A DNA stretch of 45,575 nt, counting the filler, from Hausera hauseri (Eukaryota), in the NCBI GenBank assembly GCA_046269625.1. It is 8 parts of 8 records of this genome, joined end to end, with 100 filler letters (N's around TTAATTAATTAA, not from the genome) between each part and the next. Parts side by side here need not be neighbours in the genome. Positions count along the whole stretch, not along the records: positions 8,042 to 17,786 come from JBJURY010296611.1; positions 17,887 to 21,921 come from JBJURY010804087.1; positions 22,022 to 26,575 come from JBJURY010530011.1; positions 26,676 to 30,674 come from JBJURY010829527.1; positions 30,775 to 34,999 come from JBJURY010690549.1; positions 35,100 to 39,640 come from JBJURY010535231.1; 2 more parts are not named here. The stretch is one strand, 5' to 3'. Of this stretch, positions 13,281-36,248 are shown piece after piece; position 1 is the stretch's first letter, and the number at the start of each line of letters is the position of its first letter. A model generated the notes under the pieces. It was given only the letters and a program-made list of their open reading frames with translations, had not been told where the DNA came from and did no database searches. Both the position numbers and the translations under genes were made by a program.

Positions 13281-13401
13281 TGTGAGCTTGACTTATGGCA
13301 GAAAATCGGGAGGCCGCCTACGCGTTTGTCGCGCCGACGGCGGAAAACCCGTCCGTGCCAAACCGAATGGGTCGGAGGGCACATTCGACGCGGGCACCAC
13401 A
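13281..13401 (-). repeat. 3' LTR, 121 bp (TGTGGTGCCC...AAGCTCACA)
   Basis: TGTG...CACA termini, directly preceded on minus by AACTTTGCCACGGGGCGTGA (PPT region) after the pol stop; related to 36158-36248. Confidence 0.75.
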
Positions 13402-16400
13402 TCACGCCCCGTGGCAAAGTTAGAACTATAAAGGATAAAAGAAAGAGAAAAAAGGCGCAAAACGAAAAGTGTGTGTGTTAGTTGAGCTTAGTGTGTATAA
13501 GTCGTTGAATACCTTCGACTGATTTTTCCCTACTATATTGGCTGAATGTGACTCTGCGTGTTGTGTATTTGTGCTATGTGTTTCTTTGCAGAGATTGAGG
13601 CTGAAGAAAAATTTGTTAGATTTTAGTGTAGGTGTTATGTCGATTGAAGATGACGAGGAAGGTGAAGAAGGTGAAGAATAAGGTAAAGAAGGAAGAATGA
13701 TTGTTGAAGAAGGAGGGTTAAAGATATTGAAAAGAGTATTAGAAGTCGAAGGAGTGATGAAAGGTGTAGTGGTGGATAAAGGAAGAGAAGTTGGAGTAGA
13801 GATTGGAGTCGTGTTGAGTGAAGGAGTGGAAGAAGAAGATAATACAAAGGTAGTGGTAGAGATAGAAAATATGGTAGGAATAGAAGGAGAAATTGTAGAA
13901 GATGATGAAGCAAGACTAGGCGCGGAAGAAGAAAGTGGAAGTGGTATAGTAATAGATGTAGGGATAGAAGGGAGTGGAGGAGTAAGAAAAGACTTTGGCG
14001 TGTCGGTTGGTAAGGTGTCGTCGACAAAGAAAGCAGGCTTTAGGTTGGTTATGTGTACTGTGAAATCTTTACCGTCTTTGGACATGATGATGTTATGCGA
14101 GTGCAGCTTTATAAGTATATAGGGCCCCAGATACCGTGGTTGGAAACTGCAAGGAGCCTGATTCTTCAGCCAAACGAATTTTCAGGTAGGTAAGTTTTAT
14201 CTTTGTGAAGTAACCTGCAAAACGCATCTCTGCTGATCTCGACGAAGTGACTTTGAGCCGCCCGCATCGTCTCATCTGTGGGAGTGTCGTCTAGGGCGGT
14301 TAATTCGAATAATGAGCGGACAGGAGTTCCGAATAAGGCTTCAGTAGGCGAGCATCCTGTAGAAGTGGACGGAGTGTTCCGCCAGCCAAGCAGAACGAAA
14401 GGAAGACGATTGGTCCAACTAGAACGCTAGGAGGCCGTTCGATTGGGAATGATAAGGCATAGTATGAATGTGGTTGATCCCCAATCGGTTAACAAGGAAT
14501 TTGAACAGGTTGGATTCAAATTGTAGACCTTGGTCCGTGAGGATGAAGCAAGGTGATACGAACCTGTTGATCCATGTGCGAATGAAAACGTCAGCTATGG
14601 TGTCGGTGTTTATGCTCCACAGAGGGATGGCTTCTGGCTATCGCGAGGAACGGTCCATCATGGTGAGGATGAATTGATGACCATTGTCTGGAGGAAGAGG
14701 GCCAACAATGTCGATATGCACGGCTTCGAAACGCGATATGCAGGGGAAGTGGAATAGTGGTGGCTTTAAATGCTTAGCTGTTTTGTATTTTTGGCATGCC
14801 ACACACTCCTTAACCCATGCCTGCACATCAGAATGCATTGACGGCCATATTACTTGTCGACGGGGGAGGCGAAAAGTGTCTTTAGCACCAGGATGGTGTA
14901 ATGAATGCATGTGGTGAAATGCTTGTCTTTGCAACGAAGGTGCTAGGATTATTACTGAATGACCTGATTTGCAGGTGTCTAAAGCCACGCCGTCAAAGAT
15001 TGTGCAAGATTTAAAAGTATTAAGCATGTCTTGAGGTGGCTAATTCTGTTGAAGTTGTTCTTGCGTAAAAATCGGAGAAAAATTAATAGAACTAACCAAC
15101 CTAGATAAAAAATCAGCAACTAAATTGTTAACTCCGTTTATATGTTTAATATCGAAGTTAAATGTCAATAAGTATGATATTTGTCCTTCTTGGCGTGTGG
15201 AAAGGTGTTTCATGGACATGATGTTAAGTAAAGGCTTGTGGTCCATTTGTAGAGTGAAATGACGAGCGACGAGTAAGTGTGAGAAATGTTTGAGGGAGAG
15301 AACGATTGCCAACAGTTCTCGATCGAATGTGGAATACCTGGTTTCAGGTGCGGTTAGTTTGCGAGAAAAAAATTCAATGGTTCGTTTTCTCCCTTGTAAA
15401 TTTGGTGGAGTGCAGGGCCTAAAGCAGTGGTTGACGCGTCAGTGGCGAGGATGAGCTCTGCATCAGTCTTGGGAAAAGCAAGAATATCTACAGTTTTGAT
15501 GCCTTCGCGCAGCTTGTCGAATTTGTCAACCAATTTAGGTATCCACTAAATTGGCTGATGTTTTTTGCCGCCGTTTAGATGTGCGAATGGTGCTGTTAAT
15601 TCCGAGCAATAGGGTACATATTTGTGAACAAAGTGTAGCGTGCCAAGGAAGCTACGCATTTCGGTGGTCGTACGTGGCAATTGGATGTTTTTAAGCTCTT
15701 CGACTCGATCTGATTGGGCAGAATGACCGTCTGGTGTGATAGCATGTCCTAAAAAGTTAATGCGCATTTTGAAAAAGTGGCATTTGTCGAAGTTAATTTG
15801 GAGATTATGGTAGTGAAGACGTTGGAATATCGACTAGAATGTCGTCGATATAAGGGTTTGCAAACGAGAAATCGGAAAGAATGGAATCGATGTGTTGCTG
15901 AAAGGTTTGTGCGGCATTTAGTAAACCGAGTGGCATAAACAGATATTCGTAGAGACCAAACGGAGTAGTTACTGCGGTTTTTTCTGTCTTCAGATGCTAC
16001 CGGTATTTGGTGGTAGGCTTTAGCTAAATCAATGGTAATTGACTTAATACGATGCAGGACATCCTTAATGAGTGGTAAAGGATATGTATCCATAATTGTC
16101 AAGTTGTTTAGCTGTCGGTAGTCACAGCATGGTCGAAAAGTACCATCCTTTTTGTACCACGTGTAAAGGTGATAACCAAAGTGATTTGGAACGGCGTACG
16201 ATGCCGGAGCGTTCTAGCTCAAGAAACTCGGCTTCTATGGCTTGTCTTCGGCGAGGTGAGGGAGGCCGTACCTTTTGACGTATTTGACGTTGATGCTGTG
16301 TGACTATGCGGTGTTAAGTGCTGTTGGCGGGAGTAAAAGTGCTATCCTTTTTAAGTACGCGTGAACATGATTTATTAATGAATTGCTGTAACGTTGTAGG

Positions 16401-17136
16401 TAGCTGTGAGAGATTCTGTGAAAGTAGTGGAACAATTTGAGTGGTAGCGGGTGAAATATGAGTTGTTAGGTGATGTGCAGTCAAGTGGTATTTGGTGTAA
16501 GATGGATGAATTGAAAATGGTGTTGGCTGAGGTATTTTCGTCAAATGAATTAGCACTGTTGGCAGTACCACACTTATCGACATCAAATCTTGATCGTATA
16601 TCAGTGTTATTGTTTAAAAATTTCCGAATTGAAGTATTATTATGAGAATTTGAATTATTGTTATAAAAAGTCGAATTATTCGCAGACTTTTAAGATTGAC
16701 TTCCGCCCCACGGTCCACTGTGCGGTAGTCGAAAAGCTATTTATATGACCAGAAATGTCGCCAACGGTGCCTTTCCTCAAACATTGCTGGCTGCAGTCAA
16801 CCAGTAGGTTGTAGTGTGAGAGAAAGTCAGACCCTAGGATTGCCGACTGGACGTTAGCGACTGTGAACGTTTAGCGGAAAGATGTAAAGAAACCAGACAA
16901 GATGAAAGATAATGTAGCCGTGCCCGAGATGCGCAGCGGCTGGCCTGAAGCAGTATATAAAGGCTAAAGTTTGAATGGAAAATTTTATGTAGGAAAGGTT
17001 TGCGGTAATAGAGAAATTGCGGGCCTGTATCAATAAGGAAGTCAAGAGATTGAGTTGTAGGGGCAGTGATTGCAGCCTTTAACGTAAAGACTGAGAAAGA
17101 GATGTGTCGGCGTGCAGAATGTAAAGTAGTGCCTTT

Positions 17137-17178
17137 GCCAGAGTTTGCCGTGACCTCTGGCGGCAAACTTAGTTTTTT
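17137..17178 (-). promoter_or_regulatory. -1 ribosomal frameshift signal at gag/pol junction
   Basis: A AAA AAC TAA followed by GTTTGCCGCCAGAGGTCACGGCAAACTCTGGC (stems GTTTGCCG/CGGCAAAC and GCCAGAG/CTCTGGC, H-type pseudoknot geometry). Confidence 0.75.
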
Positions 17179-17638
17179 GGAAAAGATGAACTGGAACGAC
17201 TGTGAGAAGTGAAGGCAGTACGTCCGTCGTTCGTATTAAAATTGAAGGTACAGCCAGGGATACATTTACATGCTTGATTTTTGAATCTCGCGTGGTAAAT
17301 GCAAACCACGGTGTTTGAGGAAAACTTCTGGTTATAAAATTGGCAACCCAGGCAGCATTTCTAAGCGGTTGTGTTCAATCTGCTGTGGTAGTAGCAGATA
17401 GACGAACGCGCAGGCGATGGTGAGTGGTTCCGTGACGTAGAACTGGCACGGGAAGCGGCAAAACCGCCTCGTCGGGACAGGGACAACTCGTTCAACTTAT
17501 TGTTGATGTTGTTGATTGTTGCATGTAATGCCATGTTTTCAGCACGTAGCTGACCAAGTTGTTGTTCTATGGATGTAGTGTTTGATTGTATGTCGTTAGT
17601 TGCGACAGTAGGGGGAAAATACCGCTTCTGGCTCAGCT

Positions 17639-17786
17639 CCCCCCGGGGGAGATCGATAAATCGATTTTGCACGTGCCGATCGATAGTGCACCCGGAACAC
17701 TATCGATCCATGAAATGCTAGGCAACGGTTCCGTTAGGCACCGTTGCTAGGCACATTTTTGCACATTTGATAAATCGATCGCTGCA
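17639..17786 (+). repeat. 'R' family copy 2 (terminus only, cut by contig end)
   Basis: CCCCCCGGGGG start and the same twin hairpins as copies 1 and 3; truncates gypsy gag. Confidence 0.8.
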
Positions 17787-17886
17787 NNNNNNNNNNNNNN
17801 NNNNNNNNNNNNNNNNNNNNNNNNNNNNNNTTAATTAATTAANNNNNNNNNNNNNNNNNNNNNNNNNNNNNNNNNNNNNNNNNNNN
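17787..17886. other. Synthetic contig spacer
   Basis: 44 N + TTAATTAATTAA + 44 N. Confidence 0.98.
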
Positions 17887-18141
17887 CAGAACAAAATGGT
17901 AAAAATCGACGATTGTCGAAACAATTCGGAGTCCAACGAGAATTCTCCCTCCTTTCCAACTACAGTTCATTTTGAACCAAATAATCAAAAAGGCCCTGAA
18001 TTCAAATATCACAAAGTAAAATTCAAAAATCACTCCAACGGTATTGCATTTCCAATGATCAAACCCACAAAGCAATTGCTGGGGAGTTGTTCAAGTCTCG
18101 TTGCGGGCGATACAAAACACAAAATACTCGGCGATGAAATA

Positions 18142-18240
18142 CCACCGACGTGCTGGATTCCAGATCACACCGATGGGTCCCCCCAGGCAACCTAACTTTG
18201 TCAGCGGGGGTAATGTGGTGCTCACATTGGCCCACCCAAA
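18142..18240 (+). mobile_element. LTR-element 3' module: conserved pre-PPT segment, PPT (GGGGG 18206-18210) and LTR head TGTGGTGCTCACATT (18214)
   Basis: Colinear with 28678-28775 and with the PPT/LTR junction of gypsy copy 1. Confidence 0.7.
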
Positions 18241-18420
18241 AATAACTATATATATGTAATCGCTTTTTTTGAAAAATGTGTTTTGTAAATATTCGTATTT
18301 ACGATGATGGTAAAAATTTAAAATGAAATAAAAAATTATGGCAGCTTTTTTCTTTCTGAAACTATGAATTTTGAAGATTCAGGTACTTTGGAATATATTC
18401 GAAATAAAAACGAATCTATC

Positions 18421-21400
18421 AAAGATGAATTGATGAGCATTGTTTCGAGGAAGAGGGCCAACAAGATCTATGTGCATGGACTCGAAAGGCGATGTGCAAG
18501 GGAAATGATGTAGTGGTGACTTCAAACGCTTTGTGGTTTTAAATGTCTGGCAATCCGCGTAATCCTTAACCCACTCTTACACATTAAAACACATTGAAGA
18601 CCAAACTACCTGTCGGGGAAGCAAGCGAAAAGTAGCCTTAGCACCAGGGTGATGTAATGAATATACGCTGTTGAATGCCTGTTTTTGCAAGGCAGGGGTT
18701 AAGATAATTTTAGACTGCCCTGGTTTGGACGTGTCTAAGGCCACGACGTCAATGTTGTAGCAAGATTTAAACGATTTAAGGATGCCTAGAGGTGGCTGGT
18801 TTTCACGAAGCTGGTTTGGAGTGAAAAGAGGCTTAAACTTAATTGAGCTAACTAACATAGATAAAAAGTCTGCGACTAAGTTGTAAACACCGTTAATATG
18901 ATTAATTTTAAAATTAAATGTCGACAAGTACCAAATCTGTCGTTCCTGTCGAGTAGAAAGTTGTTTCATTCCCATGATGTTTATTAAGGGTTTATGGTCA
19001 GTTTGTATAGTGAAGCCTCGAGCAGGGAGTAAATGTAAAAATGTCTTAAAACGAGAACTATCGACAGTAGTTCTCGGTCGAAGGTGAATTATCTAGTTTC
19101 AGGAGGTGTTAGTTTGCGTGAAAAAAACTCCTTCAGTTGATTTTCGCCTTTATGAATCTGATACAGTACAGCGCCTAAGACAGTGGCGGCAGAAAAAGCT
19201 TGGCATCTGGCTTAGGATAAGCTAAAATTTTGACTGTTTTTAGGCCTTCTATTAATTTATCAATGTTATCCAGCAGTTCCGGCGTCCACAGTATTGGATG
19301 ATGCTTTTTTCCTCTACTTAGCTGAGCAAAGGGCGCGGTTAGTTCTGAACAATATGGATCATACTTGTGGCCGAAATATAATGTGCCAAAGACGCTCCTC
19401 ATTTCGGTAGTTGTTCGAGTTAATTGGACGTTCTTGAGGGCTTCGACTCAATCAGGCTGGGGAAAATGCCCTTCAGAAGAGATAAAGTGTATGAAGAAAT
19501 TTGTACGTCGTTTAAAGAAGTGACATTTCGTAAAGTTTATCTGAGGGCTGTGTTTGTGTAAACGGTGAAAGATGGATCGGAAATGTTCTTCATGTTGTTT
19601 GGTGGATGAAGAAACAACAAGAATATCATCAGTGTAAGGATGATCATAAGGAAGATCAGAAAGAATTGCATCTATATGACATTGGAAAGTTTGTGCGGCA
19701 TTCCTTAAGCCAAAGGACATATATAAATAATCTAAAGGCCGAAGGGTGTAGTAACGGCGTTTTTTGATATCTTCGGGTGCCACCGGGATTTGATGATAAG
19801 ACTTGGCCAAGTCAATGGTGGAATAGGTTGTGGCGGATTTAAGACCATGTAATATATCTTTTATCAATGGTAAGGAATATTTGTCCATTACAATCAAACA
19901 GTTTAGTTGCCGGTACTCACCACATGGTCTGAACGATCCGTCCTTTTTTGCACAGCATGTAAGGGAGAGAACTATGGTGACTTGGATCAACGTACAATGC
20001 CAGAGCTTTCAAGGTCTAAAAATTCGGCTTCAACCGCCTTTCTGCATCTAGAAAATAATGGTCGTACCTTATGGTGTTGCGCAATGATGTGATGAAAAGT
20101 GCTATTTTCTGGTGTGAAAAACCTATCTTTTTGAATTACGCGAATGCATGATCTATTTAGGCACTGCTGCAGATTTTCAAGCAATTGTGAAATTTATTTT
20201 GTGGCTTAAAATCGAGAAGTATTTGATGTAGAATGGTCGTGTTCAAAATTGTATTTAAAATAGTGATCTCATCCTATGATTTTTCAGTGGAGACAAAATT
20301 ATAGTTATTGACATTCAATCTCCCTTCGTTATTTATACTATATTTTAATAATTTATCAAATAAATCATGTTTATTTCAAAATATCGGTTTATTCGCGTGC
20401 TTTTTCAAAATTGACTTCTTTGTGACATTTATCTGCGCAACAGCTGTAACTCTATTTATCTGGTTGGTTCGATTTTTTTGAAGATACTTTTCACACAACG
20501 TTGTCTACAATCCATCAAAAGATTGTAATACGGTAAAAATCAGATCCAAGAATGGCTGAATGTACATTTGCGACTATAAATGTCCACTGAAACTTTGAAG
20601 AAAAGTTTGGCAAAGTGAAGGAAAGTTTAGAAGTTCCAGAAACATACAACGGTTGTCAGGAAGCTGTAAAAAGAGATTTCGTTTTAGATGTAACGTTTTG
20701 AATTGGGAAATTGAGCGGTAGAAGCGATATTGCTGCACCTGTGTCGATAAGGAAGTTTATATGTTGAGATGTCGGTGAACTGGTAGAAGCTTTTAATGTG
20801 AATGCAGCGAAAGAAATTTTTGGGCTATTAGAAAATAATGGGTGGCCTTCACCAATGCTCGCCAAAAGCTCTGGCGGCTAAGTTAGTTTTTTGCAAGAGA
20901 GGAACCAGGACGGCTGTTAGAAGCAAGAATAGCGAGTCCGTTATTTGAATTATGAGCGTTGTTTTTAAAAGTGCAACCTGGGATGCATCTGCATGCATTG
21001 TTTGACTTTTGCATGATATGTGCAAATGACGCTGTCTTTACGATACTTCTAGGTTTCAAATTTGCACCCCTGGTGGCATTTTTGTGCTTTATTATCAAAC
21101 CTACCGTGATAATAGCAAATCAGTGATAGTCCAGTTGAAGGTGACCGACCACGGGACACAGAACTGTTACGGTCAGGTATAAAACTCCTTCGTTTTGTCA
21201 GCGAAATTTCATTTAATCTGTGATTAATATTATTAATTGTTGTTTGTGAGGTCGCATTTTTAGCCCATAGTTTATTTAATTGTTGTTCGAATGCTGTATT
21301 GTTGTTGCTAGCAGCTGCAGAAATGATGGGCTGTGCATGTAGGTTCAAAACTTTATATGTTTTATCTGCCAGTTTGGCCAATTTATCCAAAGCCCTCGAT

Positions 21401-21921
21401 TTCTCGACGACGGTAAGTAAGTTTTGATCTGGATGGGCAATGCATTTAGGAAGTAACGTCGTAAGAGGTCAGCATTATGTTGTTTAGTAACGCCGAGTGT
21501 TTGCAATTGAGCAAGGGAAGTTTTTAAAAAATCAGACGGTTTCTGCGTTCACATGGCACTGTCATTGAAGAATCTATGGATAATAGAATCCATGGATGGT
21601 TCCGTATGATTTAATACTGCGTTATAGAGATGGGTGCATGGGTCAAATTGTTGAAATAGATCTAACAAATCATGATTAGACGTTTTTACTGCTGTCGGTA
21701 AGAGACAAAGTAAGCTATGAGTTTTGGCTGATGGATCGGTGATGCCACTGGACTTCAGCTAAAGTTTATGAAAATTAAGGCATGTTTTGCTTGAATTTTC
21801 ATGGTCTATAAAATACTCTGTGCATTGGGAAGAAGTGCTTTTAGATTGCGAAGGAATAGTGGTAAAAGTAGTCATGTTGGATGGTGTGGTGACAGTCGTT
21901 GATTTTTGAAAAAAGGGTGTA
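18421..21921 (-). mobile_element. Ty3/gypsy retrotransposon copy 2 (gag to mid-integrase, degenerate)
   Basis: gag start ~21875, twin zinc knuckles, FLIDTGAAISLLP, IDLAKSYHQIPV, FGLRNAAQTFQ, YTDD, DHKPL, LHHPG, HIDLVGPLP; many stops and frameshifts. Confidence 0.95.
20851..20892 (-). promoter_or_regulatory. -1 frameshift signal, gypsy copy 2
   Basis: AAAAAACTAA then CGCCAGAGCTTTTGGCG stem, at the same gag/pol position as in copy 1. Confidence 0.65.
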
Positions 21922-22021
21922 NNNNNNNNNNNNNNNNNNNNNNNNNNNNNNNNNNNNNNNNNNNNTTAATTAATTAANNNNNNNNNNNNNNNNNNNNNNN
22001 NNNNNNNNNNNNNNNNNNNNN
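21922..22021. other. Synthetic contig spacer
   Basis: 44 N + TTAATTAATTAA + 44 N. Confidence 0.98.
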
Positions 22022-23369
22022 CCGAAATTAAGGACCTTACCCATAAACGTTCTAAAGAACTTTGGTATAACAGTGTAGGTGGTCCTATATGATGTCTCGT
22101 ATTCAATTAAAAAAGGCAACGACATGATTCTCGGCAATAGTAATTTATGTAGCCATTTAAATCAAATACGCCGTTTACAAATTCCAAAAGAATCATACAA
22201 CCTATCGTAGGCAAATCTGTGTATTGATTAAAATAGGTTTGCGCTGGACTAATTATCGTTAAATTATCTTTCGAAATGACTATAATACTTATCAGGGCCT
22301 GATGAAACGTGAATCTCAATTCCCCTTAGGAATGAATGCTCAAACGTGAAAGTAAATCGGCAATCTCAGACAAACTCATATTTGAAGGGAGTAACCCTAT
22401 AATGGTGAGCATATAGGTTTCAGGGGGCAATGCTGTGCCAGCATTGGCATGAACGATAATAAATGAGAGAAATGAATGGAAAGTATTTTTAATGAAAAAT
22501 ATATTAAAATATTTGACGAGAGAATGACACAATACTATCAGTCTTACCTCGTCGTATGTCTCCAAAAAGCTTGCCGATGATTTTATCTGATTGATGAAAA
22601 CCTTTGAATTGTGACTTTCAGAGAAATTATTCTTCTTTGCTGATTAAGTATGCGTTGAATTATTGAAGTATTAGCAGTATATACTAAAGCTATACGCTTA
22701 ACTGTCATGTGAGGTAGTAGAATTGATGTTGGTGAAAGAGGCGGTAAAGTACTTGCAATATTGATGGTGTTGGTCCGCTGGGTACGTGCAACAGTGTCTC
22801 AAACTGTTTGGTACAGAGTTATTACACCATTTTCATTCATTTGAGTAAGGTTTTTAGACCTTAAATGTAAAAATCCAGCGACAAAGGTGATACATTCATT
22901 TTCACTGGAATTCACTTTTTCAGCAATTTTATCGGTTCTTTTGACCGTCACAGATTTCATATTTTCGTCTGCCTGAAATACATCGGGTTTTATAAAATAA
23001 TCATTTGGTGCCAAGTTTAATTTTGGTTTGGTTTGAGTTTCAAAACTTGCCAAACTTCTAATGAGTAAGTGGTCTATTTGTTGAAGAGAAGTTAGTTGTA
23101 TCTGAACATTTGTATTTGAACTATGGATAGACATGAAAGAACTATTTTGGTTTATAACACAAGGCTGAGGTGATTTAATCATTCGCTGAGGCAAGCGTGA
23201 AAGACATTGCGGAGATATGGATTTATAAATGTAGAATAATTTACAGAATTTAAGGCTTGAGTAGTGAAAAGATTATTTGATTGTGGTCTAATTGGAGTAT
23301 GTTGAGGAAGTCTTGTAATCTTGAAAAATTATTAAAAGTAGTTATTGGAATGGGTTGTTGTACATTGCA

Positions 23370-23730: not shown

Positions 23731-26575
23731 TCATTATCATCATCGTCATTCGATAACAACGGACAAATGTTACTGTCGAGATCAACGGTATTTATTGGCG
23801 GTATTACATTACACTCACTCAGATTATATTCATTAGATTGTATATCGATTTCCAACTTAGAATCTTTTATATCATCTCTTGAATTTTCACCAATAATAAT
23901 TGAAGATACTTTGAACATTTCAGTAATATGATTATCTGAACGTTTAGTATTCTCATTACATTTTAAAGGTTTAAGAAGCTTCGACTGAGAACATCCTGAC
24001 ATACCAACGCCTGCATCCGAATTTCGAGACGCATCATTGTCCTGATTTCCAGAGAATTGGTTAATATAATCCATAATTTCATATTGTACACTGGGGCCGT
24101 TATCTAGATTAAGTTCGTTTTTCTGTATATTAGCCACAAAACTAAGTGTTTTTGAATCATCTCCAACATAGTCATTGTTAGACAGTTCTGAAGAAGGAAA
24201 TTTTGATATATCAATGTGTGGACAAGTTTTAGAAGACTGAATACTTTGATCAACTTCGGGAATAGTTTCTAACAGATTAGAATAATAAGCTTGCTCATAA
24301 TTGTTCATTTGCGCAATTTTTAGGGTCAACTGTTAAACTGCGTATATCTGGTGGAAAAGCCTTAAGGACTTTAACAACCGGTACAGAGATCTTTGAACTT
24401 TGGATTTCTGAATTTGACGAATGTTTATTTTTATCACCAGTAATTAAAGACTTTGAGGCCTTAAACATTGACTCTTTTCGGTATTCATTACCAATATTCA
24501 AGATTAGATGCTGGAATTGCCTCGGATTTTCAACAGATACTAAGACATTATTCAGCATGATAGATGGTACCGGAACAGCCTTTTCTTGATTTTGCTCATC
24601 AAGATGAATATTAGCTGCACAACTGTACATTGTTGCGTCTCTGATTGCTTGTTCAGTTGTATCAGAATGTAAATGTGACTCAGATGTTTTGGAAACGTCA
24701 ACGATTGGAGTCATTATTGGTTTCACATAATCGCTTGGCATGGATGTTTTTTCCAGTGTTTCGTCGTTCGATTTTAGAGATTGGTTACTTTGTGTATTAG
24801 ATATCGGAATATCAACCATCAAAGAAGACGACATAAGTTTGTCTAGATTTTGGTTTTGAGACTGTCGCTCGGTAAAACAAGTTAGCATCACAGAGTCACT
24901 TTTCTGATAAGACATATCTGAAGAGGCCAATTATGATATTTCAATTACACATTTTTATGAATATGTTCCAAGGTCACTTGTCGTGGATGGCAATAAACTG
25001 TTGAGCTGAGAACATTCAAGGGTGTTGTTTTCGAGAGTCTGATCTGTATTCCGATTACAAAACGATTCAGTACAATTATCCATTAACAAGAATGACACAG
25101 TATGTTCTTTGTTTTGAGTTTCGGATGTTGATTCACTTGAAGAATTAAGTGTTCGGAATTCACTTTTTGTATTCACGGACGCATCAATGCACATATTTGA
25201 TAAAACCTCTGGAGGAATTTCAACTGATGATTTTTCTGAAAGTGTCATAACAGTTTCTCGATCTGATTTCCTCAAACCCTCTGCCTCCTCGTCGATATGA
25301 AAACAATGAATCAGATCAGTGTCTTTATTTTGGTCAGGCATATAATCGCTATTCGTTAAAGTAGATACGACAGTTTCCCCTATTTTTGGCTCATCAGAAT
25401 GTAGTTCAGTTACAGAACTAAGTGTCGCTGAAACATCGTTTCTTATCTGAAGAACTATTGGACGTTTTAACAGTTTAGACTTACTATCAGGTATGGATGA
25501 TTGTGCAACATTGGACCCAGACTCTTGTAGAATGTCGTCGTCTATCTTCGAAGTAGGCGACAAAAACGTGTCTTGTTTGCAGGGCGGAATATGAAAATCC
25601 ATTAATGGCAACGCTGAATTCGTGGACGTGTTCTCATGCTGTTTGTTGGAGAATTCAGTTGAAATATTTTTAAAATTTAATATTAATGTTGGCCTCACAC
25701 AATCATTAACAGAGACTATCGAAGACCCTGTCTGGGTTATCAGAAATTTTTCCGGATGGTTGCGATTATAAATAGTCTTCTTTTTCTAAAGAGCCATCCA
25801 CTGCATTTAACAATGAGGTATGTGAGACTGTTCACAGTAAGTTTAACATCAACCGACAATATATCATCGTAAGCAGTTTCAATTATCTTAGACTGGATCT
25901 CGTATAGTATATCCTTTATAATTTTGTCAACTAAACGTCTTGCTGCAAGTTCAATGAATTCAATTTCATCGGTATCTTCTGATGGTGATACACTTAAACT
26001 TTCGTCATTAACTCCAGTGGATTGAAATAATTTTGAATGGAGTACTTTATTGATAGGGAAATGCCAACTACTGTCGTTTTGCATTAGATGTGGATGTGTA
26101 CTTTCTTCAGTACTATCTAATGTATCAGAATGTTTATCTGATTTAATTTCGTTGGATGTTTCTTGGATGATTGTTCCTTGAGCTCTTGTACATTAACTGA
26201 AGATATATATCCACAAGTATCTTGGTCTGATTTAGATTGAATAGCCCTCAATTTAACATTCTTATCATCTATTGCTCTATAGACATTTCCAGAATCTGTT
26301 TCATGTTCCTTACTAAACAGAGTTCTGTTCCACAAAACTATTTTTTTGATTACTTTCTGTATTAGTAAATTGAATGATATCAGACAGATCTGTACAGCCA
26401 CTTTCGACTCGCGCTGTTGCAGAACTAATTTCAAAGGTTTCTTTTCCATCTCTATCAAAACTAACAGAAGAAGAGATGCATTCAACATTATCTCTCACCT
26501 CTACAGCCTTTTCACTTTTCTTCATTTCATTGGATGGGAAAAACGTTACTTTTTTCATCCTTCCTATGACATTTC
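23731..26575 (-). pseudogene. Large S/D/E/N-rich disordered protein, frameshifted
   Basis: Chain of minus-strand ORFs (26313-26558, 26117-26488, 25740-26084, 24955-25698, 24295-24930, part of 23250-24329) joined by frameshifts and stops. Confidence 0.55.
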
Positions 26576-26675: not shown

Positions 26676-27056
26676 TGTTAGGAGGTGGCTGGTTTATTGA
26701 AGTTTGGATTGAGGAAAAATTGGTGTGAAATCAATCGAGCTGACCGATTGGGAGAAAAAGTCAGCTAGTAAATTGTCGACTCCGTTTAGGTGCTTAATTT
26801 CAAAATTAAATGTGGAAAAATACGATATTTGCCTCTCCTGACGTGGAGAAGACGATTTCATAGTGAGAATTTGAAGCAAGGGCTTGTGGTCCGTTTGTAT
26901 TGTAAAAGTTCGTGCAGTTAGTAGATGTTTAAAGTGTTTTACAGCAAGGACCAATGCAAGCAACTCTCAGTCAAAGGTGGCATATCTTTGCTCTTGTGCC
27001 GTGAATTTTCGTGAGAAGTCTGGCTCATGGGATCCATTTTTGACTTGATGGAGGAC
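26676..27056 (-). mobile_element. Gypsy RNase H fragment (copy 3)
   Basis: VLHQ...FSRKFTAQEQRYATFD*ELLA...KHFKHLL...TDHKPL...GVDNLLADFFS. Confidence 0.92.
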
Positions 27057-27453
27057 TGTCGTGCCCACATTCACCTAATCGATAATTTGGACAAAAAAAA
27101 AACATTTTCTTGTCTAAATTTATAAATCAAATTCTCTTGTTTTCAGCCAATTTCGAACGTTTAATATTTCAAGTCTATTTTTCTCTTTGTAACTCGACTG
27201 TGCCTAATTTTGACATGTAATTTTCTCATCATTATGAAATGGTTATCAATCTTGGGCAGCTTTGTTATTGTATGATACGGTTCAGAATTTGTTGATATTG
27301 TACAGACTAAATACAACACGCGAATTTCAACTTACTCTCTATTGATGTTGGATTTAATGTCGTAATCGTTTTATTTTCTGTAGAGTTTTGGCTATCCATG
27401 GATAACCGTACAATAAATGACCAAATTATAAACCAAAACCTCGGAAATCACAC

Positions 27454-27464
27454 TGGTGTCAGAA
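27454..27464 (+). promoter_or_regulatory. Primer-binding site complementary to tRNA-Leu 3' end
   Basis: TGGTGTCAGAA one base after ...TCACA; this is a common invertebrate gypsy PBS (TGGTGTCAGAAGTGGGAT). Confidence 0.6.
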
Positions 27465-27699
27465 CCCCACATCTGTACACAGTCGTTGTACAACGGGCAG
27501 AAGTCCAATATTTTCTAATGGTCATTGATCCAGTAGGATCAACCGTTTTCCATCAACCAGTTAACCCAGGAGAGACCAATTCTCTAATAATCGAAACACG
27601 TCAAATAGAATTTTACATCCCATATCTACATCTCGGCGAAATCCAGGAATTATTTTATTTCTCCATCAACAGCACAGTCGACACAACAGATACTGTCAG

Positions 27700-28677
27700 T
27701 GCTGCTCCCGTCCAGCCGAATAAAATGCTAAAAACCAACGATTGCTGACGCAATTCTCATCCCTCTCACTCACCAAAATATAATTGTCGGGATATTGAAG
27801 GATCCAATACAGACACTTCTGAAATCGCCATTTGATTTCCTTAAAGCACTTTGTAATCTCACCCAAGGCGGGATTGTCAAACATTTTACTGCCTATATCC
27901 AGAATTTATCAGATCGTCATTCACGAAATCCTCAAGTATATTGGAAGGAAAAGGACCGTGCACTGCTCTTCATTACTTCCATTGCATCACATGGCGGTAC
28001 CGAAAGATACAGCGTTACGAATGCGACCTTCGTTGACATTGCTGCACTCTATAAGAGTCACGTGTTGCCGGGATTATCTGATAAATTGGCGGTAATGCAG
28101 TCGTTAAAGCCAACTGTATCAAGTATCTTATGGCATTCTGTAATATCATTTCCCACGACGAACTGAAATCATTGATAAATTTGCTATCGCAATTTGCCTG
28201 TCATCAATTTCACATCGTCTACACGTATGCAGCTTCTGCCGTTAATAAATTATTGATGGTTCGTTATCCGTAGTCACCAAATGCCATCAGTACTGCGGCA
28301 TATGTTAACGAAACGATGCTGTTTCGGTTGTGCGATGCATTGCAGATCGAAGGATCAGAAGAAAATGACTGTACTATGCAGGTCATTATGCGAGGTTTGA
28401 GTATGTTGAAAACTAGTCAGCTGCTGTTGGATAAAATTCTGCCGTTCTCACTACGAAAATTGGATTTAGCCGTTAAAAATCCGAAGAAACCACGATTCAA
28501 TCATTTCGTAATGGAATCCATTGACTGTGCTTAAAAATCGTGTGCAATAACAATTCCAATTACGTCAGTGAACTTAAAACTGCACTGGCACCAATAGTCA
28601 AAACGGTCTTTCAGAAAGAAGTTGAACAATTCCGGCCGTACATATTTCAATTGCTGAGTCTCCTTCTAGGTCACAGT
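27700..28677 (+). pseudogene. CSE1L: Exportin-2 internal fragment, frameshifted
   Basis: RDIEGSNTDT, DFLKALC, NPQVYWKEKDRALLFITSIASHGGTE, HIVYTYAASAVNKLL, GSEENDCTMQVIMR, KNPKKPRFNHFVMESI, QFRPYIFQLLSLLL. Confidence 0.88.
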
Positions 28678-28861
28678 CCACCTACATGTTGGTCACTAGA
28701 AGACTCACGTTGGGTCCCGCCTGGCAAATCTGACTTTGCCACGGGGGTGTGGTGTGGTGCCCACATTCACCCAATGAGTGATTTGTTGATAAAAACTTTG
28801 TTTGTTTCAATATTCAAAATAATAAAAGTTTTTTTGAGTTTCCTTAAATCCTTTTTGCACA

Positions 28862-30029
28862 ATGAGTGACTGTCTTTATATTCCCTGCATGGACAAACAG
28901 GTTAGACTAACATGGGAAAACGTTAATGAAGGTATTGTGTTTAATGATGGTTTTACGTCGGATATTTCTTCTGCTTCTGGTTTGTTGACTGAAGTTAAAT
29001 GGCTTTGTTCAATGCAAGAGCCGATTTCCCAGTATTTAGCTATACAGTCATACCATATTTTTGAAAAGCTTCAAAGTTTAAAAGAATACGATTTGGAAAG
29101 CCTCTGCAAAAGTCAAGAATACATAGCTGTCCTTACAGAATGCAGATAGCAGATTGAAAATGAAATTAATTTTTTGGAACGAAATGGACAAGATAAGAAT
29201 AACGATAAATACGTGTACTTAACGTCTCAGTGTAACACAATTAGAGATCAGCAGTTGTTGTGGCATTTGTCTGAAATTCTGTTTATCAAGTCCAGTCTAG
29301 CGGGCTACCTGCTACAAGATTTAAAAGGTTGTCTGAATCTGCAGCAGCAACATGTCTTGTCAGCCTACGAATTATTGCTGGATTTATTCAATGACGGTGA
29401 TCGGGATATGATATTGGAAGACGACGATAGATTCTGGCCAACGGTTATTTCATTAGGACTTCACGGTCGAAATTTAGAGCTCGCCAACTTGTTGTCCTAT
29501 TATTCTCACAACAACCGTCAGATCTTTAGAACTATTCTCGACGTTTTAGATCTCATGCCGGTTTTTTGGTACGAAATTGAAAATCTCACAGAATTTGAAA
29601 TTGCTTGGCAAAAATGGCATCGATTGGTTCGAGAATCGCTGATCGACAGTTGCGTGCTGAATGTGTATCCACACTTATGTACCCTGGCGAGAGTTTTGGC
29701 CGGCGACGAACGCGTATTCATTGAAGATATCGTGATGTAGCTTTTCGACGGATATCGGTTTTTGGCGTTTATATCGTTTAATTTGCACTCATCACCGTTA
29801 GCAAGTATTAAGTATGTTAAACAGTGTTACAAGCGATTTAAACAGTCATTTTTGAATTCATTAGAATATCAGAAAGTTCCGAATATGGGGCAATTATCCG
29901 AAGAATTGTTGAAAGCCATCGATTCGATATTCAATTTGAATATCGGCAACTTAATTCTAACCATTTCTAAAAACAAAAACAATTGGTGGTTGCTAGCCCA
30001 TCTGATTGACATGATCGATAAACTTCACA
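28862..30029 (+). pseudogene. NUP85: Nucleoporin Nup85, N-terminal ~390 codons with two in-frame TAG
   Basis: One frame from ATG 28862 with TAG at 29147 and 29738. Motifs SQEYIAVLTEC, LLWHLSEILFI..S.AGYLLQDL, FWPTVISLGLHGR, F..AWQKWH, PHL..L.RVLAGDE, NWWLLAHLIDMID. Ends abruptly at the tRNA-complementary sequence. Confidence 0.82.
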
Positions 30030-30030
30030 C

Positions 30031-30069
30031 TGGTATAAGAAGTGGTATTCGAACCCACGCCCACGAAGT
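30031..30069 (-). other. Mature tRNA-Leu 3'-half copy including CCA (an extended PBS when read on +)
   Basis: + strand TGGTATAAGAAGTGGTATTCGAACCCACGCC vs tRNA-Leu complement TGGTGTCAGAAGTGGGATTCGAACCCACGCC (3 mismatches in 31). No 5' half of a tRNA is visible. Confidence 0.8.
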
Positions 30070-30189
30070 TTATTGCATCTTATGAATTTTGAAATTGAGA
30101 ATTCTTGTTGGCCATTTTTTTAGCGTCGCAGTTTTAATTTAATCTATCGCCGATCGGGTTTAATTTATTACAATCGTGAATTAGATTTT

Positions 30190-30674
30190 TTATTTATTGC
30201 CATATTGGAATATTCCTTTGGAATATTCTCTTTCTTGGATTTCATTTATCCTCTCGTCCGTGGAGACGTCTGCAAATTGCTCACTAACCTTTGCAATTTC
30301 ATTCCGTACAGCTTGCATTATTGGGTCTGGTATTTGCAGATTAGTGTTAAACTCGACTAATGCATTATGCATTCTTGCTAACAAGGTTTGCAGTAATGTT
30401 GCCAATGATACGTTATCTACATCAGATTCATCTTCTTTTGTTAACAATCTTCGGAAAACTTTATCATCTCTGGCCTTTCTGCCTTTTAGTTGATAAAGTT
30501 TTGTCGTTCCGTTCGGTCTTCCGCGTGTTCTTTTATCTGATTGTATTTGTTCAGATATAGGGATATTTATTTCGTTTCCCATCTGCTGTGCTTCTTGATG
30601 ATGCCCGGCTTCTTCCATTTCTTTTTATCCGACATCAGCTATAATCTCATCGATTGTCTCTTGTTCAGACTGTC
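30190..30674 (-). CDS. Unknown protein C-terminal fragment with RGRP (AT-hook-like) motif
   Basis: ORF 30190-30618 (KRTRGRPNGTTK); runs toward the contig edge. Confidence 0.3.
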
Positions 30675-30774: not shown

Positions 30775-31433
30775 TGAAAGGCTGCATAGAAAGCTATACA
30801 ACAATAGTGTTTTTAGCAAGACGATGGAAAATATCCGCAACAGGATCAACATTGAGCTAGTAGGTGACTGGAAGCGGACAAAGAAGCTCATTACCAAGCC
30901 TAACTTCCACAGCAGCAACATATATGCGGAGAATTTGGTAGGAATCCATATGCTGAAAACAGCATTGGTATTCAATAAGCCCATATATGTGGGTATGGCA
31001 ATATTGGATCTATCAAAATCTTTAATGCATCGATTCCATTATGACATCATGGTCCCCAAGCTCAAGTCCATGCAGTTGATGTATATGGATACTGATGGTT
31101 TTATCTATCAGATCCATACAGATGATATTTATGAAGACTTTGCCTCGGGCTATCCGAAGGTTCATCCCAACTATTTAATAACAAAGTCCTAGGGAAATTC
31201 AAAGACGAGATGAATGGAGCTATTATTTCGAGATTTGAAGCGCTCAGGTCCAAAATGTATGCACTAGACATATGTGGTCAGATCAAAAAGAGAGACAAGG
31301 GCGTTCAAAGGGCTACATTGGTCAAGATCAGTTTGGAGGACTATGTGAGAGTTCTGCATGAGTAGACTCATATCATATTGGAGATCCGAAGGATCCAATC
31401 TAAAGATCATAACATCCAAACAGTAAGGACTAA
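30775..31433 (+). mobile_element. Polinton-type family-B DNA polymerase, C-terminal fragment
   Basis: KLYNNSVFSKTMENIR (motif B), NKPIYVGMAILDLSK, YMDTD (motif C), LGKFKDE, LRSKMYA, KGV. Confidence 0.9.
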
Positions 31434-31434
31434 T

Positions 31435-31600
31435 GAGGGAATATATCATTATTATAGTGAATATAGAGAGGGAATATACCAAGATAATAAGATTATTGAA
31501 GGAATATGCCAGTCATATAGTGAATATAGAGCGGTAATATACCAATATAATAAGGATTATTGAATGAATATGTCAGTATTATGGAGGAATATAAGGAGAG
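31435..31600 (+). repeat. Tandem repeat, ~63-64 bp unit, ~2.5 copies
   Basis: GAATAT..CA.T..TATAGTGAATATAGAG.GG.AATATACCAA.ATAATAAG.ATTATTGAA recurs at ~31439, ~31502 and partially at ~31566. Confidence 0.8.
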
Positions 31601-31829
31601 AATTGTGAGACTCGGTCATTTTTACTTTCTGTTGTAGAAGGGTCTGATGTTGGCCCATTATAGTTTGTATACCACCGAGAGGGTGTTTTGGATATATTGA
31701 TTCTTGATATGAATCTCTTAGAGTGGATGGTGGCGGTTGAGACGGTTGAAGAGGTATGCTGCTGAGTAGAGCTGATTTATGTAACGAATCCTAATGTACC
31801 ATAGGTGATGGGAGATTGCGGTTCATACT

Positions 31830-32360
31830 GTCAAAAATTTCATCGGCGGCGTCTTTGTCGCTTTGTAAAGATGCACTATCGTAATTATTGCCACACATTT
31901 CCTCCAAACTCAAACCGATTATTGCAAGGGCCTCATTAATCAATTTAGTCAGACGAGCACCACCCGACTCAAGTCGAAAATTTTTTAGATTTAATGTTTC
32001 TAATGAGTTAATGGCGTCCTGATATATTTTTTGAATATACCGCAATTTGGCCAGCAATATTTTGGCTTCCAGTTTATATCCGCCGTCCACTGATAACAAT
32101 ACATCGTCAATGTTTTCTATAATTTCTATTGCTTCATCGCCAGATATCGAATCTTCTTCATTAAGAAATTTTTTTACTTTCGCCTCAGCCATTGCCAAAT
32201 AATAGAGAACCTCCAGTTGTGATAGTGGTTTTTCATTACGAATTTGAGTAGTTAAATCATAAGCTTTGTGCCATTTAAATTCGGCTCTGAGTTTCTGAAT
32301 ATAAAATTCCAATTTGGTACGTTTAGACCTGTGTGATTTGATTAAGAACGAGTGTCTCAT
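31830..32360 (-). pseudogene. TTC7: TTC7 (PI4KA-complex TPR protein) N-terminal fragment
   Basis: KLEFYIQKLRAEFKW, LAMAEAKVKKFL, LEAKILLAKLRY....YQDA, RLTKLINEALAIIGLSLE match the TTC7A/B N-terminus; similarity is lost after DEIFD. Confidence 0.75.
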
Positions 32361-32544
32361 TGCGATGATGAAAGTTTGAAAATCAATTATAAATTTCTAT
32401 AATTATGATACCAAAATACAAAACTTTACATCATCTCAAAAATCGGCTAAAAAAGTAATAAATTCCACTACTTTCAAAATTCTCCAAAATGTATTTCTGT
32501 ATTTAAATAAAATACAAATGTTTTAACATACCAGGTTCCGCATG

Positions 32545-32577
32545 CAGATCACCGATTGGGTGAATATGGGCACCACA
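32545..32577 (-). repeat. LTR head TGTGGTGCCCATATTCACCCAATCGGTGATCTG
   Basis: Near-identical to the heads at 27057 and 28753; interrupts the PolB frame exactly at its TG. Confidence 0.75.
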
Positions 32578-34240
32578 TAAACATTTCTGGATCCTGAATG
32601 AGCTTAATACGACATGGACTCGTTTTAGTGCAGTTGCCCAAGATAATCCTGGAATAGATACGAAATTAAGCGCTTCTAAGCCATTCTCCAACTTAACCTG
32701 CTTTCTAAATCGTTCAAAAATATCACCTAACAAGTATACACCTAGTTTCATGTATACTAGCTTGTAGTCTAAAATCGGGCTACATTTATATCTTAACCAA
32801 GTAAGTTGAGCCTCTTGATGATCGCTGTCATTAATACCATTCCATTTCGGTGGTAATTCAGAAATCGACTGCAAGTCAGCAAACTATTTGGTTGCAGTGT
32901 ATGGAAAAACACCTTTAGCTTTAATGATATCAGATGGAAAAGCTGTTTTGGTAAATGGGTAACAGTCTAAATTAGAGGCAAGTTTCTTCAGTGAAGCAGT
33001 TAAAAACTAAAGCGTGTCCAAAAAGCGAATTGAAACAGACTTTTTACCTGCACATAGTATCATACCCTGCATAGTGAGGACTTTTTCCGTTGTTTGCGGA
33101 ATAACACTTAATTCCCAGTTGTGAATATATTAATACGTGTTTTAAAATATGATAAAGATCATACCCACTCAAATTATAGAACATAACAGGTAGATTGTAC
33201 CGAATCTGTCGAGCCAAGTTACATTTACTACATGCTGGGCCTAAGAATTTATCTGTAACATGGCAGTGATCTCCAAGAAATTGTGAACCGTTGTCATAAT
33301 AGATGTAACAGTATGTGGCATTTTTAAACCAAAATAATTCAGCGGATGTTAGTGGGATCATTGGCTTTTTAGCATTTTCGTACCAAGCTTTTCACAATTT
33401 CCTCTAAACAAGCCAAAAACCGAGCGATAGAATTTTCACAAACAAACTGCCTATACTGAATACACGTTGTCGGCAATAACAAAAGACCGGTTGCAGCAGG
33501 CAAATGGGTATGCTTAACCTTATTATCAGGACACAGAACTGATCCAATGTCAGCATATATGACAAAAAGGACTTATAAATTTGGCCAAGTCCCTAAATTC
33601 AAAAAGCTTGTTTTCAGGCATTCTGTACAAAGTTGTGCATTTGGAACAAGATATACACATTTTTAAATGCTTAGCATAAGCAGCGTCACGCCTAAATCCA
33701 TGCAAACATTTCTCACACCAATGCTGACATTGAATTTTCATACCGTTAGACCGTATTTTCAACAACCGAATAGGATTTTTACTTCCATACAAACTATCAA
33801 CGAATGGATTTTTCATTATATACTCATCAAAATCTACATCATTCTCATCATGAAACAACAAAACATTAATTAACAACTGTGGATTCTGCCTTTCAAATGT
33901 ACTTATGTTGCATATTTTCATAGGCATATCATTCAAGGAATATTTTATCTCGCTTAAATATGGAGTGTAAGTGCCAACCCTATATCTATAATTGTTAAAG
34001 AGGGAATACTTGGTTACGGCAAGAATCAAGTATAAGAAAAATTGTCCTCATTCTGTATATTAACAACAGCCATTGCATTTTTCAATGCGTCAGATGTTGG
34101 TAGATAGAATTTTTCAGACAGATAGGGTAGTGGACGTGTTTTAACTATATGAAAACAGTATTTCAGAATTTTCACTACCTTCCTATTACTACCCATTTCG
34201 GCAAATTTTCCACTTGCTATCGCAAAGTATCAGCTACAGA
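32578..34240 (-). mobile_element. Polinton-type family-B DNA polymerase, N-terminal half, degenerate
   Basis: FERQNPQLLINV, C2H2 (CEKCLHGF...HLKMC), IYAD exonuclease motif, endonuclease-VII-like DHCHVT.KFLGPACSKCNL, FYNLSGYD, IRFLDT, KGVFPY, LLGDIFERFR, SIPGLSW. Confidence 0.9.
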
Positions 34241-34999: not shown

Positions 35000-35099
35000 N
35001 NNNNNNNNNNNNNNNNNNNNNNNNNNNNNNNNNNNNNNNNNNNTTAATTAATTAANNNNNNNNNNNNNNNNNNNNNNNNNNNNNNNNNNNNNNNNNNNN
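35000..35099. other. Synthetic contig spacer
   Basis: 44 N + TTAATTAATTAA + 44 N. Confidence 0.98.
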
Positions 35100-35309
35100 A
35101 AATAAGCTATAATTTGTACACAAAACTGTACAGTACAACTAACAACAAGAATATTTCAAAAATCAGGACATTATGAAGCCGAATAAATTATAAATTTATA
35201 TTGAGAAAAACGGTTTGTTTTGAAATATTTAGACGGTACCTATACAAGTAAATAAATTAATATTTAATAATTGAAACTTATTAAAAATAAGTGTTCAAAC
35301 AACAGACTC

Positions 35310-36069
35310 ACCAAATCAAATAGTCGCCAGGAATCCAATTTTTTAATCTCATGGTCTGAATTGTCACATTTTTCAATTTGTATTGCAACGGTTTTACAAT
35401 AGCATAGCCACAGTAAATTCGCAATACTTTAACCAGCTTGTTGTCAATGTTGTAATGTTTGGAAAAAACAGATAGTTCTTCTTAGTTTGTTTCAAATTAC
35501 TATTATTGAACTTGTCACCATCTGACTTAGTTGACGAGTCTATGTCATGTTCAGAATCATTATAATCACCATAGAAACCATTTTTTATTCTGACCCTTAA
35601 ATCATTGGGCAGAGCACGGTTATTATAATTTCCGTCTCTGTTATAATTATATTCTTTCGCAGAAGAACTATTTGATACGGTATCGTGATTCTTTTTATAT
35701 GAATTTTCCGAGGTATCGCTGATAAATCCATAACTTAAGGATATTGACTTCGAAGTATGGTATTTGTATTTTGGCTTGACTGCAAGCAATGATTTTTTTG
35801 GATTTCGCTGAATTGACCACATATTGTATAGATTGGATACTGGGATTTAAAGCGGATTGTTTCAGTTGCAAATGTTTTAAACCATTTGATTGAATGGTTT
35901 CGATTTCGGGAATATCTTTTAATAAATCAGTTAAAGTACTAAAACCATAATTCCGCCATGACAGAGTTTCTCCAGTTATATGTTTATATTCACCTTGAAG
36001 AGAATTTAGGGGTAATCCATGTTTCGACGATCCAATAACACTAACAATATTGGCTTTAATAGACTCCAT
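35310..36069 (-). pseudogene. LOTUS/OST-HTH domain protein (TDRD5/TDRD7-like) 5' part, frameshift near 35822
   Basis: IKANIVSVIGSSKHGLPLNSLQGEYKHITGETLSWRNYGFSTLTDLLKDIPE is a typical N-terminal LOTUS signature; possible GTGAGT donor at ~35311. Confidence 0.8.
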
Positions 36070-36157
36070 CAAAATTTGCATGCAATTATAAAACAATGGT
36101 TTTGTAAAGACCATCTAAAGGTATTTGAAAAGGAAATTATACTGAATGGAAGATTCA

Positions 36158-36248
36158 GGCCTGACTATGGGCCCAACACGGAGGCAACGGACGCCCGGCC
36201 GTGTCCAACCAAATGGGCCAGAGGGCGCCGGTTGCCGTGGGCACCACA
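36158..36248 (-). repeat. LTR-like segment related to 13281-13401, lacking the CACA end
   Basis: TGTGGTGCCC...GCCCTC...CCCATT.GGTT...CACGG.CGGG...CCATA.GTCA.GC is shared with the gypsy LTR. Confidence 0.7.

Follow-up and report, generated by a model that had tools for sequence, protein, structure and literature searches.

What stands inside a long terminal repeat (LTR) when the same LTR start repeatedly leads into the beginning of a host gene? The question is raised by a stretch of 45,575 nucleotides (nt) of the Hausera hauseri assembly GCA_046269625.1, here called the window, in which six LTR starts (heads) of CsRn1-type retrotransposons lie at 13401 (-), 18214 (+), 27057 (+), 28753 (+), 32577 (-) and 36248 (-). 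With a probability of about 0.6, the sequence indicates that such LTRs keep their integrase end motifs and can enclose, as interior, the 5' portion of a host gene, probably obtained when the complementary DNA (cDNA) jumps onto a host mRNA and back. The unit filled with a piece of NUP85 is complete, and those with TTC7 and a LOTUS-domain gene show the left end only. The feature is real and better defined than in the original prediction, but its basis is a single window with one complete unit and two half units.

The window consists of eight scaffolds of 4.0-9.7 kb each, joined via N spacers. The outside data were the contigs of one public run (X1), in which 0.27 of the sampled words were present; the comparison with this run covered positions 26680-30670, four of the heads lying outside that range.

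LTR heads

The exact 8-mer TGTGGTGC was found in five of the six heads that had been predicted, and the sixth, at 27057, reads TGTCGTGC with one mismatch. When two mismatches at most were allowed, the 15-mer of the head matched the window four times against 0.28 expected, and none of 100 shuffled sequences reached four. One more exact 8-mer, at 7131, was rejected as a head, the likeness ending after 8 nt.

The motifs given for CsRN1 LTRs are TGTGGYG at the 5' and YYAMA at the 3' integrase attachment (att) end, with a mean LTR length of 330 (PMC3601003 Table 3). TGTGGYG is exact in five of the six heads. Because it is the CsRN1 5' integrase motif, and because the gag-pol remnants carry the Gag motif of the clade, the head is read as an LTR start. 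The observation that the 13401 copy follows gypsy pol and a polypurine tract (PPT) was borne out, with pol identified upstream by Pfam and a G-run preceding the head. A G-run PPT with a common upstream context of ca. 22 nt stands before 13401, 18214 and 28753; it is short, with 9-10 purines in the 16 nt upstream, which is not above the other heads. Since the head follows the PPT, its interpretation as a primer-binding site was rejected. The motif thus marks an LTR start as predicted, but not necessarily of one family: the 8-mer is a clade-wide integrase motif, and therefore the long and short heads need not belong together and may represent sister families.

The short heads are those at 27057, 28753, 32577 and 18214, and the long ones those at 13401 and 36248. 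The first three short heads are alike over 33 nt (27-29 of 33 positions in comparison to 28753) and the one at 18214 over ca. 15-26 nt only, while the two long heads are alike over ca. 55 nt, with weak likeness out to about +92 (p = 0.066). Behind the heads, none of the 15 pairs of interiors proved related (best local score ≤ 26). Even the 27057 and 28753 LTRs, which stand around one internal region, have only ca. 41 nt in common. The hairpin TGTGG-TGC-CCACA described for the head is perfect at 28753, but four heads have four of the five pairs and one has three; the second hairpin ascribed to the short heads is perfect at 32577 and nowhere else.

Right ends, primer-binding sites and complete units

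The right-end motif TCACA had been overlooked earlier. It is present at 30025-30029, 27448 and 13281, and each of these right ends fits six of the seven positions of the CsRN1 3' motif MSYYAMA. Three complete units are delimited in this way: one of 121 bp consisting of element DNA, one of 396 bp that is AT-rich, and one of 1,277 bp that is filled with host sequence. In the last of these, NUP85 homology extends to the right end at 30025-30029. The piece breaks off at codon ~388; TCACA closes it, followed by one base and a tRNA-Leu primer-binding site (PBS), and for this reason 28753-30029 is interpreted as a host-filled LTR, with a PPT before it and the primer site after it.

The 9-mer TCACACTGG occurs twice in the window against 0.19 expected, both times downstream of a head and in sense orientation; within 1,300 nt of the six heads, 0.017 would be expected. 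One occurrence stands at the NUP85 right end and the other at 27448, in front of a shorter primer site. A scan of the window for complements of tRNA ends gave a single site, at 30031, directly after the NUP85 piece. After TGG, 25 of 27 nt of this site equal the 3' end of a tRNA-Leu(TAA) gene, taken from a viral contig as a stand-in for the host tRNA. An R-U5 region (repeat plus unique 5' part) common to the units was sought and rejected (p 0.08-0.88). The 396-bp unit may have captured its sequence from a host 5' end, or it may be an LTR of the ordinary kind.

Host gene starts behind the heads

Pfam identified Nup85, TTC7_N and OST-HTH/LOTUS behind three of the heads, and the start codons proposed at +109 (NUP85), +217 (TTC7) and +179 (LOTUS) were confirmed. 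In the alignment with a 53%-identical homologue of 728 amino acids, the TTC7 ATG falls exactly on residue 1, and a NUP85 relative begins within about seven residues of the NUP85 start in the window. The claim that heads repeatedly lead into sense 5' ends of host genes holds for these three of six, but 13401 leads to antisense coding DNA. The probability that three or more of six heads stand by chance no further than 250 nt from a sense N-terminus is 2e-4 if eight N-termini are assumed in the window and 0.02 if 40 are assumed. The further candidate ATGs at 18364 and 27234 are both present, but without family support: the former opens only ca. 15 codons and then runs into pol DNA, and the region of the latter gave no Pfam match.

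Host pieces with discontinuous element DNA on both sides are NUP85 and a piece of CSE1L in the internal region of the same element; for TTC7 and LOTUS this holds for the left side only. The extra 25 nt after the 32577 head were tried as a copy of the 3' end of the 27057 unit and rejected (p = 0.61).

A full HMMER scan produced 55 matches to NUP85, against none among 4,135 candidates in a word-indexed search. The named matches include trematodes, sea cucumber and fish, with trematode proteins among the best named. The head pattern had no matches in metagenome contigs and three in large viral contigs, taken as chance. None of 71 candidates was confirmed in the integrase search of metagenomes, and the ESM Atlas gave no usable match for the open reading frames (ORFs) at 27311 and 3866. 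Rfam gave no match at gathering score across the window and six chance-level matches on 26676-30674.

Comparison with the X1 contigs

Summed contig depth, which by the tool's own warning is no copy number, reached 11,243 in the bin of the head; it was 35-82 across the nine bins of NUP85, 352-435 within the 27057 body and 3,088-7,634 in the bins at and behind the two primer sites. To judge from this contrast, the head and the internal leader are common in X1, and the NUP85 and 27057 bodies rare. One contig joins a head of the 28753 type to the 27057 body, and one bridges the CSE1L piece and the 3' internal part. The contigs have sense codons at both NUP85 stop positions, and the NUP85 copy of the window is therefore a decayed derivative.

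Also an antisense ORF of 144 amino acids and of no known family, located behind the second primer site (30190-30624, minus strand), was recorded; it has the highest summed depth outside pol, 18,000-22,000.

Elements and the non-autonomous frame

The CsRn1 clade is defined by a CX2HX9CX3C Gag motif (PwRn1/AgCR, PMC2582038). This motif is intact in the gag-pol copy at 18409-21921 and interrupted by a stop in that at 13426-17640 (Table 1). Also the Pol order of reverse transcriptase (RT), RNase H and integrase with a GPY/F module fits CsRn1, with GPY in the ORF 13426-14181. The tRNA-Trp primer site expected of CsRn1 was not found; both primer sites are of tRNA-Leu type, and the copies that carry them are non-autonomous. 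As for the two gag-pol copies, their 5' ends lie beyond the scaffolds or are lost.

The CSE1L piece fits fully with classical internal capture, a known route. Replacement of internal ORFs with intact LTRs describes CSE1L and not NUP85. When 17889-18213 was compared to 27718-28752, both internal flanks were alike and the borders of the cargo matched, the cargo itself being unrelated; this suggests a second, fixed cargo slot in the internal region. In X1 the CSE1L cargo has a deletion form (27796-28349), with the joint at an 8-nt microhomology (depth 611, one contig), and other cargo joints lead into 28673 and 28749. The cargo keeps changing and the frame is kept.

Table 1. Coordinates of LTR units, primer sites and element parts in the window.
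Position	Strand	Feature	Basis or remark
13281..13401	-	Complete GC-rich 3' LTR, 121 bp, TGTG...TCACA, long-head type	Unrelated antisense coding DNA beyond; flanking coiled-coil ORF on +
13402..13424	-	G-run PPT with context common to 18214 and 28753	Sequence comparison
13426..17640	-	Decayed CsRn1-type gag-pol (CHCC-type Gag, RT, RNase H, integrase with GPY)	Pfam, motifs
17889..17927	+	Internal frame, 79% like 27718-27756, 5' side of cargo slot	Sequence comparison
17928..18141	+	Cargo unrelated to CSE1L cargo	Score 22 vs shuffle mean 23.6
18142..18213	+	3' internal part, ~72 nt, and PPT, 73% like 28678-28752	Sequence comparison
18214..18408	+	Short head and AT-rich body, ended by antisense gypsy integrase DNA	Sequence comparison
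18409..21921	-	Second decayed CsRn1-type gag-pol, intact CX2HX9CX3C	Pfam, motifs
26676..27056	-	Gypsy RNase H fragment reaching 27057 head	Sequence comparison
27057..27452	+	396-bp LTR unit: head, A10 run, AT-rich body (ATG 27234), TATAAA, AATAAA 41 nt before end, TCACA	Motif scan
27454..27464	+	Short PBS, tRNA-Leu type	Sequence comparison
27465..27756	+	Internal leader (~290 nt) of non-autonomous element, high summed depth in X1	X1, sequence comparison
27757..28677	+	Captured piece from within the coding sequence of CSE1L (exportin-2), frameshifted	Pfam
28678..28752	+	3' internal part, 75 nt, and PPT	Sequence comparison
28753..30029	+	1,277-bp LTR unit: 33-nt head, 76-nt AT-rich leader, NUP85 codons 1 to ~388 (ATG 28862, two in-frame stops), TCACA	Pfam, motifs
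30031..30060	+	Extended tRNA-Leu PBS	Match to tRNA-Leu(TAA) 3' end
31824..32577	-	Short head (32545-32577), 184-nt leader, TTC7 codons 1 to ~179 (ATG 32360)	Pfam, homologue alignment
32578..33558	-	Broken protein-primed DNA polymerase B (polB) coding DNA adjoining 32577 head	DNA_pol_B_2, E 4e-4, below cut-off
35397..36248	-	Long head (~36157-36248), then 87-nt leader and LOTUS-domain gene starting at ATG 36069, apparent frameshift	Pfam

Weighing of the explanations

Several observations weigh against host-filled LTRs. The full succession of head, host piece, tail and PBS is present at one of the six heads only. The LTR at 13401 is an ordinary short one (121 bp) without a host 5' end behind it, and no right-end motif was found in the 18214 unit. 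None was identified in the TTC7 unit, where a candidate degenerate tail with PBS was matched by 11.5% of 8,812 windows of sequence, and in the LOTUS unit it is absent up to the end of the scaffold. The 27057-27452 unit may be an ordinary LTR, because its length is typical of CsRN1 and both TATAAA and AATAAA are present; the depth of the 27350-27483 bin is already high in X1, and therefore the last part of this unit may be common element DNA. Target-site duplications in register were not detected. The best background match to the PBS query, an RT stretch at 16195, scored 36. No NUP85 introns were found in the X1 contigs over 374, 239 and 253 nt, and neither NUP85 junction was bridged among the X1 matches listed (8 of 3,991 pieces and 6 of 425 loose ends). 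The intronless state does not prove an RNA step either, because other intronless host genes in the window stand away from heads.

A mosaic formed at the DNA level is judged unlikely; in it, LTR stubs of different CsRn1 families would have come to stand beside duplicated gene fragments through nested insertions and deletions, through ectopic recombination or through mis-joins at the 33-nt repeat. It keeps some of its probability because headless intronless gene pieces are many, the 18214 unit ends in pol DNA without an att motif and the TTC7 tail is not significant. It also agrees with the composition of the window, eight short scaffolds rich in decayed repeats and gene fragments, with the 8-mer being generic for the clade, and with the 27057 head adjoining pol with possible microhomology; nor is loss of introns demonstrated in the X1 contigs. 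Such a mosaic, however, leaves unexplained both the sense N-termini after three of six heads (P 2e-4 to 0.02) and a NUP85 piece bounded precisely by the two att motifs, with PPT and PBS outside, and an overlap of 5 nt cannot give an assembly mis-join. The original prediction had left two possibilities, of which the swapping of the LTR body for host 5' sequence is retained, but targeting of RNA polymerase II (Pol II) promoters is highly improbable. Fission-yeast Tf1 inserts just upstream of Pol II genes, and the heads indeed stand 109-217 nt upstream of true start codons. Yet no LTR right end separates head from gene, and targeting is disfavoured because the flanks are transposon DNA, namely PPT, RNase H (27057) or polB DNA (32577) instead of host promoters, and the genes are truncated, broken copies. 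Read-in, or 5' transduction, would mean that an element within a host gene was transcribed from the host promoter and that strong-stop cDNA copied the LTR through to the host cap before jumping. This would yield sense, 5'-complete host pieces inside a new LTR, and 5' transduction from host promoters is known for SVA (PMC13317346). It is nevertheless quite unlikely, as a whole old LTR with its own head is predicted between host piece and PBS; nothing but TCACA stands before the PBS at 30025 and 27448, and a fuzzy search gave no further head.

Counted within the probability given for host-filled LTRs is a version in which a spliced leader guides the landing. The first ca. 12-16 nt of the short head would be element sequence and the next ca. 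22 nt the trans-spliced leader of the host or a copy of it borne by the LTR; this would hold the landing at one site and pick out 5'-complete mRNAs. Positions +17 to +37 of the 32577 head have a 5' hairpin start and an ATG-ending 3' end as in flatworm leaders (PMC3795323 Table 1; PMC8629364). In the window this two-ended motif was matched twice, with 0.18 matches expected (5e-4 in the first 40 nt of the six heads), and the long heads have no leader-like stretch. Flatworm LTR and long interspersed element (LINE) loci with partial leaders are also known (PMC12582326), and the trematode proteins among the best named NUP85 matches point in the same direction. The version is still tentative at best, since the motif was defined post hoc, after the likeness had been noticed, and fits one of the four short heads, its other match in the window sitting in an unrelated repeat. 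Moreover, the stretch is ca. 22 nt long and flatworm leaders 31-37 nt (31-36 nt in PMC12582326); the leaders compared are from flatworms, the host may be of another phylum, and Rfam provided no match at gathering score. If true, this version would show the RNA origin and explain the fixed landing site.

Proposed route and its meaning

For the host-filled LTRs the following route is proposed. A host mRNA would be co-packaged with the element RNA, and the jump would take place at the first strand transfer. The tRNA-Leu would prime at the observed PBS, and the cDNA, in the shortest case only 6 nt long (TCACA and one base), would switch to an internal site of the host mRNA, corresponding to the junction observed in NUP85. 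The RT would then run off at the 5' end of the mRNA and land 12-90 nt into the LTR start on the element RNA; the head/host junctions are observed for NUP85, TTC7 and LOTUS. Pieces obtained in this way would be sense, 5'-complete and 3'-truncated. As both att ends survive, the product could integrate, and filled LTRs may be copied further, the 27057 body recurring in X1. The six element bases before the PBS in the NUP85 unit may point to either a very short R-U5 or a switch during initiation; initiation of HIV-1 reverse transcription is distributive for about six bases. A more far-reaching idea, which is for now speculative and rather improbable, is that the family routinely bridges the first strand transfer via host mRNAs and lands through the spliced-leader-like stretch of the head. 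The LTR interior would then be an exchangeable cassette of host 5' ends, able to supply start-site elements and amplified with the element.

LTR interiors are assumed to be inherited with the element and to be identical at both ends upon insertion, and LTR finders and LTR dating rest on both assumptions. Elements whose LTRs are host-filled and unequal would escape such finders or be given wrong ages, and their cargo would pass for genes. A route selecting the 5' ends of mRNAs differs from L1 retrocopies, which are 5'-truncated, and from internal LTR capture, which takes any part. A start site or leader used in the germline would be preserved at each junction, and the system would offer a testable case of how little R homology strand transfer needs and of where variable LTR promoters arise.

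Surroundings of the units

At 8913-13280 (minus strand) there is a mosaic of headless intronless host gene pieces, including OTU (presumably TRABID-like), the N-terminus of DNA polymerase alpha and further ORFs. A gene end with an A-run lies ca. 230 nt before the polymerase alpha start, resembling a compact gene pair or joined mRNAs. A host-like coding stretch of ca. 3.8 kb, intronless, frameshifted and without a Pfam match, occupies 22800-26575 (minus strand). At 39742-40518 (plus strand) an intronless NTAN1 frame of 258 codons is open and 30-31% identical to mollusc proteins; the host is a fast-evolving animal, which may be poor in introns.

The TTC7 unit is surrounded by protein-primed polB pieces on opposite strands, 30776-31430 (+) and 32578-34047 (-), which are taken to be Polinton-like; tandem repeats of 63 nt are present at 31428-31593. 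A palindrome-rich interspersed repeat is found on three scaffolds (5749-6701, 17602-17786 and 37570-38293; 72-80% identical), and one copy interrupts the gag of the 13426-17640 element. Two repeats of 900 bp, 41352-42252 and 43707-44568, form an inverted pair, 89% identical and ca. 1.45 kb apart, possibly a foldback or terminal-inverted-repeat element. The region 1007-5750 (plus strand) includes A-rich ORFs on the same strand, eight of which were scanned without a Pfam match, and is possibly a virus-like or mobile element of a new kind. Two of the ORFs, 1388-1708 and 3857-4543, look by eye like paralogues; the longer had no Atlas match.

Comparison with known systems

In the yeast Ty1 system, RT reportedly switches onto cellular mRNA in the particle, giving a product flanked by element DNA; those events are said to have been selected with a reporter, unlike the present copies. 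This cDNA capture is the work of Derr et al. 1991, as cited in PMC5131818 and PMC5470649. In metazoans, LTR-mediated retroposition joins pieces of host mRNA to LTR-element DNA by a double template switch (Tan et al. 2016, PMC5131818). The present case is similar in involving several genes and non-autonomous re-mobilisation, and a recurrent switch-back site is described there in Blastopia. In the Drosophila set of that study, part of the internal ORFs was replaced 'in all cases' and the junctions lay anywhere in the mRNA, whereas the NUP85 piece is enclosed by the two att ends of one LTR, its start being upstream of the initiator. On protein-coding 5' ends inside LTRs, the literature search gave no title or abstract opening; subscription coverage was partial, and supplements (e.g. 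that of PMC5131818) were outside its scope.

The elements resemble the CsRn1 clade in the CX2HX9CX3C Gag motif, the GPY integrase module and the att motifs (PMC2582038, PMC3601003). They differ from it in the extended tRNA-Leu primer site of the non-autonomous copies in place of tRNA-Trp, in LTR units of 121-1,277 bp and in the non-identical LTR pair around one internal region. Primer tRNAs vary also among flatworm families of another clade (PMC12471100).

Miniature terminal-repeat retrotransposons (TRIMs) of the Cassandra, Helenus and Ajax lineages are likewise non-autonomous and have sequence derived from host RNA inside the LTR (PMC10886601). Each of these lineages has one fixed piece with the RNA polymerase III (Pol III) promoter of a small RNA, proposed to come from the insertion of a short interspersed element (SINE), unlike the different protein-coding 5' ends present here in different copies. 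A Pol III promoter of this type was not found in the LTRs: no Rfam family reached its gathering score in the window, and the tRNA complement is located outside the LTR, at the PBS. As in plant LTR elements, where switching between co-packaged RNAs alters the LTR interior (the promoter swap of BARE-2, PMC13317346), the interior appears exchangeable, and with a PPT before it and a PBS after it the 28753-30029 unit resembles the shared LTR of PMC1950507. The donor in both of those systems is another retrotransposon, whereas here it would be the 5' end of a host mRNA.

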